Below, one piece after another: positions 36,657-40,640 of a stretch of 64,000 bases of DNA (within the stretch, counting starts at the first letter, position 1; every line of letters begins with the position of its first letter). A program made the translations under genes and the position numbers. The stretch is from Candidatus Omnitrophota bacterium (lineage in GTDB: Bacteria; Omnitrophota; Omnitrophia; Omnitrophales; Aquincolibacteriaceae). Under the pieces are notes generated by a model, which was given only the letters and a program-made list of their open reading frames with translations, searched no databases and was not told the origin of the DNA. Location: positions 54,520-118,519 of the forward strand of contig DAOSLF010000005.1 in the NCBI GenBank assembly GCA_035368605.1, in the 5' to 3' direction.

Positions 36657-36684
36657 TTGATTTTTTAAGCCCCTTCCTTAAAAT
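36657..36684 (+). promoter_or_regulatory. Putative sigma-70-type promoter of groEL1 (TTGATT, 16-nt spacer, TAAAAT)
   Basis: Seen in the sequence; a CIRCE operator begins 10 nt downstream of the -10 element, which is the usual HrcA-controlled layout. Confidence 0.4.
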
Positions 36685-36693
36685 AGCAATTCC

Positions 36694-36720
36694 TTAGCAC
36701 TCTCGGTTTCGGAGTGCCAA
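36694..36720 (+). promoter_or_regulatory. CIRCE operator (HrcA binding site): TTAGCACTC-N9-GAGTGCCAA
   Basis: It matches the consensus TTAGCACTC-N9-GAGTGCTAA with one mismatch and lies about 80 nt upstream of groEL1. Confidence 0.8.
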
Positions 36721-36802
36721 GACTTCGAAATATCTCTCAGATATCGATCCGGGCCGAATTTCCGGCCTTTCATTAAAACAAAAACAACGGAGGTAATATC
36801 AT

Positions 36803-38458
36803 ATGGCAAAGCAACTTCTCTTCAGTGAAGAAGCGCGGCGGGCCATTCTCGCGGGCGTTGACAAGCTCGCGAACGCCGTGAAAGTCACACTCGGCCCCAA
36901 AGGCCGCAATGTCGTCCTCGAAAAGAAGTTCGGCTCCCCCACCGTCACGAAAGACGGCGTGTCGGTCGCCAAGGAGATCGAGCTTGAAGATCCTTATGAA
37001 AACATGGGCGCCCAGATGGTCAAGGAAGTCGCTTCGAAGACTTCCGACGTCGCGGGCGACGGCACCACCACCGCCACGATCCTCGCGCAGGCAATCTACC
37101 GCGAAGGTCTGAAGAACGTCACGGCCGGCGCGAACCCGATGGCCCTCAAGCGCGGCATCGACAAGGCGGTCGAAGCCATCGTTGCCGAACTCGACAAGAT
37201 CGCGAAGCCGATCGGCAAGGACAAGAAGGAGATCGCCCAGATCGCCACGATCGCCGCGAACTCCGATACCACGATCGGCGACCAGATCGCCGAGGCGATG
37301 GACAAGGTCGGCAAGGATGGCGTCATCACGGTCGAGGAATCGAAGACGACCGCGACAACGCTGGATGTGGTCGAGGGCATGCAGTTCGACCAAGGCTATC
37401 TCTCCCCCTACTTCGTCACCGATGCGGAGCGCATGGAGGTCGTGCTTGAAGAACCTTATATCCTCATCAATGAAAAGAAGATCTCCGCGGTGAAGGACCT
37501 GCTTCCGATCCTTGAAGCGACCGCGAAGACCGGCAAACCCCTCCTCATCATCGCCGAAGAAGTTGACGGCGAAGCGCTCGCGACCCTCGTGGTCAACAAG
37601 ATCCGCGGGACGCTTACGGTCTGCGCCGTGAAGGCCCCCGGCTACGGCGATCGCCGCAAGGCAATGCTCGAGGATATCGCGATCCTCACGGGCGGACGGG
37701 CGATCACCGAGGACCTCGGTATCAAGCTCGAGAACGTCGGCGTGAAGGAACTCGGCCGTGCGAAACGCGTCACCGTGGACAAAGAGAACACCACGATCAT
37801 CGAAGGCGCCGGCAAGAGCGCGGACATCGCGGGCCGCATCGGCCAGATTCGCAAACAGATCGAGGAAACGGACTCCGATTACGACCGGGAGAAGCTCCAG
37901 GAGCGCCTCGCGAAACTCGCGGGCGGCGTGGCAGTCATCCATGTCGGAGCCGCGACCGAAACCGAAATGAAGGAAAAGAAAGCGCGCGTCGAGGATTCCC
38001 TGCACGCGACCCGCGCGGCCGTGGAAGAAGGCATCGTCCCCGGCGGCGGCGTGGCGCTCTTGCGCGCCAAAACCGTTCTCGACACCCTGAAACTCAAGGG
38101 CGATGAGGCGATCGGCGCCGATATCATCCGCCGCTCGCTCGAGGAACCCCTCCGCCAGCTCGCGCACAACGCGGGTGACGAAGGGTCGGTCGTCGTTCAG
38201 CGCGTCGCGGACGAAAAAGGCAGCACGGGCTACAACGCCGCGACCGGTGAGTTCGAGAACCTCGTCGAGGCCGGCATCATCGACCCGAAGAAGGTCACCC
38301 GCAGCGCGCTCCAGAACGCCTCAAGCGTCGCGGGACTCCTTCTCACCACCGAAACCCTGATCACCGATCTCCCCGAAGAGGAAAAGATGCCCCCGATGCC
38401 CGGTGGCGGCATGGGCGGGATGGGTGGAATGGGCGGCATGGGCGGGATGGACTATTAA
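36803..38458 (+). CDS. groL: Chaperonin GroEL, copy 1, with a C-terminal (GGM)n tail
   Basis: 551 aa with the [40 protein letters not shown]-binding motifs. It ends [18 protein letters not shown]. Confidence 0.95.
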
Positions 38459-38464
38459 CCTCCC

Positions 38465-38500
38465 CAACCCGCGCGGTTAAAAACTCAACCGCGCGGGTTG
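38465..38500 (+). promoter_or_regulatory. Intercistronic perfect 14-bp inverted repeat (CAACCCGCGCGGTT-N8-AACCGCGCGGGTTG) between groEL1 and groES
   Basis: Seen in the sequence. No T-run follows it. It is a possible partial terminator or mRNA processing/stability element. Confidence 0.4.
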
Positions 38501-38541
38501 ACTCTGGTTCTTAACCACATCAATCATAAGGAGATCAGACA

Positions 38542-38838
38542 ATGAAAGTAAAGCCGTTAGCAGATCGCGTTCTCGTGGAAATCCTCGAAGCCGAGGAAAA
38601 GACCAAGGGCGGTATTATCCTCCCGGACACGGCAAAGGAGGAAAAGACCGAAGGTAAGGTCATCGCCGTCGGCGCCGGAAAAATGCTCGAATCCGGCAAG
38701 ATCCAGCCCGTCGAAGTGAAGAAGGGCGACCGCGTCCTTTTCGGGAAATATTCCGGCGACGATATCATCATCGACGGCACGAAACACAAAATCCTGAAAG
38801 AAAGCGAGATCCTCGCGGTTTACGAGGGTGACAAGTAA
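38542..38838 (+). CDS. groS: Co-chaperonin GroES
   Basis: 98 aa beginning MKVKPLADRVLVEILEAEEKTKGGIILPDTAKEEKTEGKVIAVG, with a TAAGGAG SD upstream. Confidence 0.95.
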   Translation: MKVKPLADRVLVEILEAEEKTKGGIILPDTAKEEKTEGKVIAVGAGKMLESGKIQPVEVKKGDRVLFGKYSGDDIIIDGTKHKILKESEILAVYEGDK

Positions 38839-38953
38839 AATTCCAAATCCGAATATCGAATGCCGGACCGAGGGTTTGTCCGGGATCAGGTCTTCAGGTA
38901 TTGTTTCGTCATTCGGATTTAGAAATTGGGCAGTCTAAAAAAGGAGTCAATCT

Positions 38954-40585
38954 ATGGCAGCTAAATCACTTTCCTATTCCGAAGAAGCGCGTCAGAAGAT
39001 CAAGCGCGGCATCGACATCCTCGCAAGGGCCGTCGCCGTCACTCTCGGTCCGCGCGGCCGGAACGTCGTCATTGACCGCAAGTTCGGCGCCCCGCTCGTC
39101 ACAAAGGACGGCGTCACGGTCGCCAAGGAGATAGACCTGAAGGACCCGTACGAGAATATGGGATGCCAGATGGTCCGCGAGGTCGCCGAAAAGACCTCCG
39201 ATCTCGCCGGCGACGGAACGACGACCGCGACGGTACTCGCCCAGGCCATCGTGACTGAAGGCCTGAAGAACGTCACGGCCGGCGCGAACCCGATGGCCCT
39301 CAAGCGCGGCATCGACAAAGCCACCGAGAAGATCGTCGAATCCGTGAAGAAGCTCTCCAAGACCGTCAAGGGCAAGGAAGACGTCAAAGCCGTCGGCACG
39401 ATCAGCGCCAACAATGACGCTTCGATCGGTGAGATTCTCGCCGACGCGATCGAGAAGGTCGGCAAGGACGGCGTCATCACGGTCGAAGAGGCAAAAGGCA
39501 TGAAGACCGAACTTGAGATCGTCGAAGGCATGCAGTTCGACCGCGGTTATTCGTCCCCGTATTTCGCGACGGACACCGAGCGGATGGAGGTCGTCCTGAA
39601 GGAGCCATACATCCTTCTTTATGAAAAGAAGATCGCCTCCGTCAAGGACCTCGTGCCGATGCTCGAGAAGGTCGCGCGTCTCGGCAAACCGCTTCTCATC
39701 ATCTCCGAGGACATCGAGGGTGAGGCGCTCGCGACACTCGTGGTCAACAAGCTCCGCGGCGTGCTCCAGATCGCGGCCGTCAAGGCACCCGGTTTCGGCG
39801 ACCGCCGCAAGGCGATGATGGAGGATATCGCGATCCTGACCAAGGGGAAATTCATCTCCGAGGATCTCGGCGTAAAGCTCGAGAACGTGGAGCTCGATAT
39901 GCTCGGCACCGCGAAACGGGTCGTGATCGATAAGGACGACACCACGATCGTCGGCGGCGCAGGTTCCGACAAGGACATCAAGGCCCGCTGCGAACAGATC
40001 AAGGTCCAGATCGAGAAATCCGATTCGGACTACGACAAGGAGAAGCTCCTGGAACGCATCGCGAAACTTTCCGGCGGTGTCGCCGTCGTGAAGGTCGGCG
40101 CGGCCACCGAGGTTGAGATGAAAGAGACCAAGGCCCGCGTTGAGGACGCTCATCACGCCACCCGCGCGGCGCTCCAGGAAGGGATCGTCCCCGGCGGCGG
40201 CGTCGCGCTGCTCCGCGCCATCGAATCGCTCGACACCCTCAAGCTGAAAGGCGACGAGGCAACGGGCGTGCAGATCGTGCGGCGCGCGATCGAGGAACCG
40301 GCCCGCAAGATCGCTTCTAACGCCGGTTTTGACGGCTCGGTTGTCGTGAAGAAGATTCTCGAGGGCAAGAACGGTTTCGGTTTCAACGCCCAGACCGGCA
40401 AGTTCTCGGATCTTCTTGAGGACGCGGTCATCGACCCGGCCAAGGTCGTTCGCGTCGCGATCGAGAACGCGACCTCGATCGCCGGTCTCATTCTCACGAC
40501 CGAATGCGTGGTCGCGGAGAAACCCAGGGAAAAGAAAGAGGACGAGAAAAAACCGGCCTCGAACTATTCCGGCAGCATCCGGTAA
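38954..40585 (+). CDS. groL: Chaperonin GroEL, copy 2, with no GGM tail (ends [17 protein letters not shown])
   Basis: 543 aa, a paralogue of copy 1 at roughly 70% amino-acid identity. It shares a 56-nt perfectly identical tract with copy 1 (37105-37160 versus 39267-39322). Confidence 0.95.
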
Positions 40586-40593
40586 GCGGTTCG

Positions 40594-40640
40594 AAAAACC
40601 CCGTTCCCGCGCAAGCGGGAGCGGGGTTTTTTTATGCCTT
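40594..40640. terminator. Bidirectional rho-independent terminator between groEL2 (+) and the NapH-like gene (-)
   Basis: AAAAACC-CCCGTTCCCGC-GCAA-GCGGGAGCGGGG-TTTTTTT. The A-run and T-run flank a 12-bp GC stem, and the T-run overlaps the stop of the minus-strand gene. Confidence 0.7.

Follow-up and report, generated by a model that had tools for sequence, protein, structure and literature searches.

The bicistronic groES-groEL operon, under the repressor HrcA and its operator CIRCE (controlling inverted repeat of chaperone expression), is the canonical form of Bacillus-type heat-shock regulation. A survey of 4,861 genomes found groES upstream of groEL, with extra groEL genes standing alone (PMC5406781). 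What, then, is a locus that carries one groEL ahead of groES and another behind it: a genuine operon, two transcription units or a fault of assembly, and do its two groEL copies still exchange sequence? We address this question for the groEL1-groES-groEL2 locus of a Candidatus Omnitrophota bacterium (assembly GCA_035368605.1), which lies in a window of 64,000 nt, the whole stretch of DNA analyzed (contig DAOSLF010000005.1, positions 54,520-118,519, forward strand; coordinates below are those of the window). Overall, our results make it probable that this is a CIRCE-controlled heat-shock operon of an Omnitrophota clade, with one past, short and neutral conversion between its groEL genes and with a lineage-specific hairpin. 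The literature searched contained no description of a groEL-groES-groEL operon, and nothing specific on groEL in Omnitrophota.

The gene order is shared by related Omnitrophota

Three co-directional genes span positions 36803-40585 on the + strand. The first open reading frame (ORF), groEL1 (36803-38458), encodes 551 amino acids and ends in a C-terminal (GGM)n tail (repeat DNA at 38405-38450). It is followed by groES (38542-38838; 98 amino acids), the sole co-chaperonin gene of the locus, and by groEL2 (38954-40585; 543 amino acids), which has no GGM repeat and a K/E/D-rich tail ending in NYSGSIR. These ORFs agree with an earlier note on this DNA, which had described a GGM-tailed groEL in first place, then groES, then a groEL with a charged, non-GGM C-terminus. 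Against the NCBIfam equivalog TIGR02348 (cut-off 582), GroEL1 scored 865 bits and GroEL2 837 bits; GroES scored 123 bits against NF001531 (cut-off 96). The NCBIfam models of chlamydial GroEL variants gave scores far under their cut-offs for this locus. GroEL2 aligns end to end with solved GroELs (residues 3-524 against the GroEL-type chaperonin 9rwr), and the motifs GDGTTT, VEDA.HATRAA and IVPGGG, as well as two apical motifs, can be read in both translations; we take the first to be the nucleotide pocket and the second the Asp398 region (E. coli numbering). The GGM tail is typical of GroEL/Cpn60 without being obligatory, and other GroEL paralogues also lack it. Here it is present in GroEL1 and absent from GroEL2, and the charged tail type is kept in seven GroEL2 orthologues. 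By these scores, alignments and motifs, GroEL2 is a member of the GroEL family despite the absent GGM tail.

GroEL2 is identical to proteins annotated as chaperonins of Candidatus Omnitrophota metagenome-assembled genomes (MAGs), and among its best 120 homologues those with a name are almost all from Omnitrophota or Omnitrophica. Seventeen further contigs of this species, drawn from NCBI, ENA and JGI samples, contain the locus at a nucleotide identity of at least 99.3%, with an identical gene order wherever groEL1 was covered. Pattern scans of a metagenome contig collection for the groEL2 tract, with either pyrimidine allowed at its variable base, gave no match even though the sequence occurs in JGI samples; these contigs are evidently absent from that collection. 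Beyond the species, the order coaX-groEL1-groES-groEL2 is kept in about nine related Omnitrophota lineages: L087 (partial; GroEL2 88% identical), L088-L093 (78-87%, tblastn) and the groundwater contigs L110/L111 (75%). The gap between groES and groEL2 is 2-4 nt in L090, L093 and L110/L111. Among the matches listed in the GroEL2 search of genome contigs, GroELs of other phyla were at most 69% identical, and we used them as outgroups. Our comparison set, taken from the same listed matches, comprised 80 GroEL loci counted as other phyla, one of which (L012) is an Omnitrophica MAG: 76 had the order groES-groEL, three had groEL alone, and one, L012, had groEL-groES. Another Omnitrophota genome, L026, has a canonical CIRCE-groES-groEL locus.

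The locus is a genuine chaperonin operon of one Omnitrophota clade, and its order is unusual, as the earlier note had said. That note had also named two scenarios that would undo its reading, namely an assembly chimera and syntenic relatives with the standard order. Both fail, as independent assemblies and related species share the arrangement. Against a chimera or misjoin that duplicated the locus stand its presence in independent same-species assemblies and in about nine related lineages, the 31-32% nucleotide divergence of the copies and their different tails; we regard it as extremely improbable.

The closest approach to this arrangement in the comparison set is L012 (Omnitrophica bacterium RIFCSPLOWO2_01_FULL_45_10b, 3892-6200), which has a CIRCE, a groEL1-type gene (83% identical) and groES (81% identical) in the same order. 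Unlike the window, it has no groEL2, and a hairpin with a T-run follows its groES (by eye). From its sequence, the L012 lineage would either have lost groEL2 or have branched off before groEL2 was added.

One promoter, one operator and one terminator

A consensus scan placed a sigma-70-like promoter (TTGATT-16 nt-TAAAAT) at 36657-36684 on the + strand. The CIRCE consensus that we tested was the inverted repeat TTAGCACTC-N9-GAGTGCTAA near a chaperone-operon promoter; with one mismatch, TTAGCACTC-N9-GAGTGCCAA at 36694-36720 (+ strand) corresponds to it and is a putative HrcA binding site. It is the sole match in the 64 kb at up to three mismatches, where 0.02 would be expected by chance, and it lies 10 nt 3' of the -10 hexamer and 82 nt before the groEL1 start codon. 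Each of six related operons has exactly one CIRCE-like inverted repeat, always 5' of groEL1 and 113-236 nt from its start codon, and L012 also has one 5' of its groEL1-type gene. A TTGAyy...TAnAAT pair stands just 5' of CIRCE in L088, L089, L092 and L093 (by eye, where upstream sequence covers). The promoter and single CIRCE that the earlier note had seen ahead of groEL1 are thus borne out by the scan and by the uniqueness of the match. At the other end, a pattern scan and a fold (z = -4.7) identified an intrinsic terminator with an 18-pair stem and a T-run at 40593-40632 (+ strand; closing element 40593-40640), and strong terminators lie 3' of groEL2 in five of the six relatives.

The three genes share a strand, are separated by short spacers, lie between one promoter and one terminator, and keep their order across species, as expected of a single polycistronic operon. 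In the model that we propose, the sigma-70-type promoter with CIRCE downstream of it would drive a single groEL1-groES-groEL2 transcript, which HrcA would repress through CIRCE and which would end at the strong terminator 3' of groEL2. Its products would be a conventional, slowly evolving, GGM-tailed GroEL1; a GroEL2 that is an old paralogue, evolving about twice as fast yet strongly constrained, with a charged tail in place of the GGM repeat; and a single GroES that presumably caps both.

Between groEL1 and groES, an inverted-repeat search returned a perfect 14-bp stem with an 8-nt loop (38465-38478 / 38487-38500, + strand), the palindrome reported by the earlier note. The spacer folds at -35 kcal/mol (z = -7.3). 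The hairpin does not conform to the intrinsic terminator pattern: its stem is GC-rich, its tail GACTCTGGTTCTT has no U-tract, and it was not called on the + strand. Among six relatives, the groEL1-groES spacers measure 46-107 nt; they are unstructured in L088, L090, L091 and L093 (46-65 nt), and L092 and L089 have strong but unrelated hairpins. On this comparison, the 14-bp hairpin is a lineage-specific addition that lies outside the conserved operon design.

Some points weigh against a single transcript under HrcA. A Pfam scan of nine window ORFs turned up no HrcA, and a weak promoter-like sequence, TTGACT-18-AATCAT, follows the hairpin at 38498-38527, from which groES-groEL2 might be transcribed separately. 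The locus would then comprise two transcription units, as in Myxococcus or mycobacteria, with groEL1 alone under CIRCE and ending at the hairpin, and groES-groEL2 expressed from a promoter of its own. A very stable hairpin directly 3' of the groEL1 stop codon and the promoter-like site would both suit such a division, and duplicated groEL genes are usually regulated differently (PMC5406781; PMC9040617). However, the hairpin lacks the U-tract and fails the + strand terminator pattern, and in four related operons the groEL1-groES spacer is short (46-65 nt) and unstructured. The promoter-like match scores only 9/12, and the -10 element in it, read by eye, overlaps with a conserved ribosome-site context (ATCATAGGAGAT). 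Moreover, there is no second CIRCE in the window or in the related operons. We consider the division into two units unlikely, and favour the single CIRCE-controlled operon.

Within that single operon, the hairpin would not be required. It may act as a transcriptional pause site or protect the mRNA upstream of it. The suggestion of the earlier note that it tunes the stoichiometry of GroEL1 versus GroES/GroEL2, for which selective mRNA stabilisation offers an analogy, is speculative. The hairpin resembles the intercistronic stem-loops that confer differential mRNA stability or partial termination in operons (selective RNA processing and stabilisation) in its high stability, its GC-rich stem and its place right behind the first cistron; in contrast to these, it has no U-tract, is not conserved in related operons and has no Rfam match. 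The window contains no other copy of the arm, and we rejected the idea of a repeated REP-like element.

We made further observations on the untranslated parts of the operon. In the minimum free energy fold of 38459-38541, a CUCC just after the groEL1 stop codon pairs, in a helix stacked below the 14-bp hairpin, with the GGAG in the ribosome-binding site of groES; this modelled pairing, seen in this genome only, could occlude the groES start. The 115-nt groES-groEL2 spacer has an imperfect inverted repeat (38838-38927, + strand; 23-nt arms, 83% complementary) and does not fold significantly (z = -1.35). The 5' leader of groEL1 contains a small GC-rich stem-loop (GGCCGAAUUUCCGGCC, 36749-36771) that follows CIRCE and precedes the ribosome-binding site, and the whole leader folds at z = -2.7. 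An Rfam scan of 36400-40900 matched no family and gave two sub-threshold chance hits only. Two - strand ORFs (61213-63150 and 63308-63973) were considered as dnaK/grpE with an adjoining hrcA and discarded, since Pfam identifies them as a Cache/HAMP/SpoIIE-phosphatase sensor protein and a DUF3313 protein. In the related lineage L089, a 76-aa GIY-YIG gene lies between groEL1 and groES (L089:4093-5000). There, the groEL1-groES and groES-groEL2 spacers end in the same sequence of about 85 nt (GCGCTGGGTGTGGGGTTTAATTCGCGCAAATAACTTACG...TTAAAGGAG, one mismatch), and each contains the inverted pair CCCCAC(A/G)CCCAGC / GCTGGGTGTGGGG. This repeat looks like a small mobile palindromic element that entered the operon twice.

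Two old GroEL paralogues under purifying selection

GroEL1 and GroEL2 share 66% of their amino acids and 68-69% of their nucleotides, and use the same codon at 60% of the identical residues. The proportion of synonymous differences (pS) between them is 0.55, which equals the level between species and is hence saturated; the earlier note had also remarked on many synonymous differences. Relative to their orthologues, the ratio of nonsynonymous to synonymous divergence (dN/dS) is 0.04-0.09 for groEL1 and 0.05-0.11 for groEL2, and dN of groEL2 is ~1.3-2.3 times that of groEL1.

We built a simple neighbour-joining (NJ) distance tree with 24 outgroups and bootstrap. GroEL1 clusters with other Omnitrophota and PVC-type GroELs. 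The GroEL2 clade received 100% bootstrap and the group of GroEL1 with L012 97.5%; in no case did the GroEL1 and GroEL2 clades group as sisters, and the order of branching within one matches that within the other. Congruent, non-sister subtrees indicate that the common ancestor of these lineages already had both copies; the earlier note had proposed a phylogeny to date the duplication. From these trees and ratios, the two GroELs are old paralogues, both under strong purifying selection. Against this placement it must be said that the tree is a distance tree in which GroEL2 has a long branch, and the non-sister position could be a long-branch effect.

As the origin of GroEL2, a duplication and a transfer are both compatible with the NJ tree. 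The identity of GroES to its counterparts elsewhere averages 57% and shows no correlation with the identity of either GroEL, and GroES thus does not distinguish a tandem duplication from the acquisition of a groES-groEL2 pair.

We also inspected an apparent groEL1/groEL2 chimera, P0001 (ENA contig of 3086 nt, 741 aa), and rejected it as such: the protein is of the GroEL2 type, belongs to another Omnitrophota species and has duplicated ~200 residues internally (KAIGTISANGDS... occurs twice, with small differences). The contig is probably two strains collapsed into one.

A short tract shared by groEL1 and groEL2

The earlier note had reported a perfectly identical 56-nt tract in the two groEL genes, at coordinates (37105-37160 and 39267-39322) that are wrong by 4 nt. 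An exact-match search places it at 37109-37164 in groEL1 and at 39263-39318 in groEL2, both on the + strand and inside the longest amino-acid-identical block of the two proteins (22 residues). The identity is complete in this assembly only. Position 39298, in groEL2, is C in the window (codon GCC) and T in 17/17 other contigs of the species (GCT, a synonymous codon); the corresponding base of groEL1 is C in every contig that covers it. The tract of the species is thus 35 identical bases, one mismatch and 20 identical bases: it is 55/56 in 17/17 other contigs and 56/56 in 0/17.

As a null model, we permuted synonymous codons within each gene, keeping the proteins and codon usages. The longest exact run then averaged 20 nt, and runs of at least 56 nt appeared in 0/20000 and 3/20000 shuffles in two runs (P ~1.5e-4). 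For the species state of 55/56, P is ~4.5e-4. Six relatives, under the same 56-nt-window measure, gave P values of 0.02-0.8; their longest groEL1/groEL2 runs are 18-29 nt and located elsewhere in the genes, and their paralogues differ at 9-13 of the 56 tract sites. The tract of groEL1 shows 3-10 differences to groEL1 orthologues, as expected of native sequence. That of groEL2 shows 4-11 (mean ~7) to groEL1 orthologues and 7-14 (mean ~10) to groEL2 orthologues, 56 nt being too few for a tree. Whole-gene divergence of groEL2 runs in the opposite direction, 0.33 to groEL1 orthologues and 0.22 to groEL2 orthologues, which points to groEL1 as the donor. Thus, the tract likely reflects a past short conversion of groEL2 by groEL1 in the lineage of this species, which in our model would have happened once and neutrally inside the 22-residue block.

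Several points tell against a conversion, and the alternative is that strong codon bias, acting on a block of 22 identical residues, produced the identity by chance. The tract coincides with the longest such block, and preferred codons make up ~13 of its 18. The GC content at third codon positions (GC3) is 0.82 in both genes and 0.64-0.75 in the relatives, indicating a stronger codon bias here. The null ignores site-specific codon preference in highly conserved peptides, and the true P would be somewhat larger. Without the private C at 39298, the exact run is only 35 nt (P = 0.0076), which is weak given that seven genomes were examined, and in L092 groEL2 agrees with the tract over its first 23 nt with no conversion. 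In addition, paralogues at 68-69% nucleotide identity are poor recombination substrates. However, the probability that all 18 complete codons match under the codon usage of these genes is ~2e-5, the P value of ~4.5e-4 for 55/56 is genome-wide, and several of the common codons (CTG, ACG, CCG) are not preferred ones. All other groEL1-by-groEL2 comparisons, within and between genomes, differ at 4-15 of the 56 sites, against one here. We find it doubtful that codon bias sufficed, and retain a short conversion as the better account. The trace is selectively neutral and of minor interest.

Of the gene conversion proposed in the earlier note, what stands is a statistically unusual, lineage-specific tract that fits a short groEL1-to-groEL2 event; there is no concerted evolution along the genes. 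As in tufA/tufB, one paralogue of an essential and highly expressed gene would have been copied non-reciprocally into the other. Between the two tuf genes there are ~12 differences in 1185 nt, and their conversion tracts average hundreds of nt (PMC5485169), whereas the groEL genes are 31-32% divergent, with ~56 nt homogenised and no gene-wide concerted evolution. A study listing 26 prokaryotic genes with long-lasting concerted evolution does not name groEL in its main text (PMC6053082).

The base that completes the identity

Whether conversion is "ongoing", as the earlier note had it, depends on a single base. Position 39298 is the only difference between the window and the contigs L001 (over 13 kb) and L006 (over 6.7 kb), and more distant strains, with 6-53 differences from the window, also have T there. 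By parsimony, T is ancestral and the C of the window derived. It would be very rare for a random mutation to put exactly that base at that site, and the C was therefore templated by groEL1, either in the cell or in the assembler. The additional match is then either a further conversion of very recent date or a consensus error to which the repeat gave rise.

We give these two origins about equal weight. If the C is an artefact of assembly or consensus calling, the genome itself has T, and reads or k-mers of groEL1 supplied the C, as could happen where a variable base has 35 identical bases on one side and 20 on the other. With short k-mers (21, for example), we would expect a simple bubble between the paralogues at that place. 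All 17 other contigs, from different samples and assemblers, have T, L001 and L006 are otherwise identical to the window, and the region is hard to assemble (13/17 contigs start inside groEL1). Nevertheless, a real conversion predicts the identical single change, and assemblers gave T in the 17 other contigs, so that the error would not be systematic. The ongoing conversion is therefore unproven, resting on one base that a consensus error explains equally well. More generally, a single base can create or erase short identical patches between paralogues in metagenome assemblies, and claims of perfect identity need read-level support.

Relation to known chaperonin operons

With the canonical groES-groEL operon, the locus shares the protein families, the CIRCE just 3' of a sigma-70-type promoter, and the closing intrinsic terminator. 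It differs in having a complete groEL before groES and a second, divergent groEL after it. With bacteria that have duplicated groEL genes (M. xanthus, with groESL1 and a stand-alone groEL2; mycobacteria, with cpn60.1/cpn60.2; Chlamydia, with groEL1-3), it shares old, constrained paralogues, one of them with a non-GGM tail. In those bacteria the duplicates occupy separate loci and are regulated differently (PMC5406781; PMC9040617), whereas here both paralogues flank one groES behind one operator, which implies co-expression. A further likeness may be that one GroES serves both GroELs, which has been shown for M. xanthus (PMC5406781).

The two GroELs could, in principle, be obligatorily co-expressed with one GroES from one CIRCE-controlled mRNA as a two-paralogue chaperonin, either in mixed rings (as in chloroplast Cpn60 alpha/beta) or as two homo-oligomers that differ in their cavity tails and share a lid. 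The order kept in about nine lineages, the purifying selection, the 2-4 nt groES-groEL2 gaps and the conserved charged tail are compatible with this idea, which we put forward tentatively and think rather improbable. If true, it would be a bacterial design distinct from the separately regulated groEL duplicates. Since groEL duplicates are common, and normally found in separate loci under different regulation, a clade-wide operon built around the only nearby groES would imply joint production. The clade lends itself to asking whether GroEL paralogues in bacteria are able to use a common lid or to assemble into mixed rings, and what the charged tail does instead of GGM. In itself, the arrangement is a modest variation on a well-known system, of moderate interest to chaperonin specialists.

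Assembly breakpoints, strain differences and neighbouring genes

The thirteen same-species contigs that start within groEL1 (L004-L006, L094, L096-L099, L105-L109) do so at varied positions 3' of the tract. groEL1 is therefore a recurrent assembly breakpoint, probably owing to k-mers common to co-occurring relatives or strains.

Downstream of the operon, 41784-44903 encodes a class II ribonucleotide reductase with a TSCPD domain, and downstream of it lies a very large ORF with GH94-family domains (2363 aa; 44977-52068, - strand). L001-L006 have the same neighbourhood, and L087 and L088 have part of it. Differences between strains and the window are clustered: L004 has a 4-base block at 41329-41332, in the region of a Fer4_5 gene, and L005 has 13 substitutions within 124 nt (45190-45313) in the large GH94 gene. 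Both clusters look like small recombination patches between strains.

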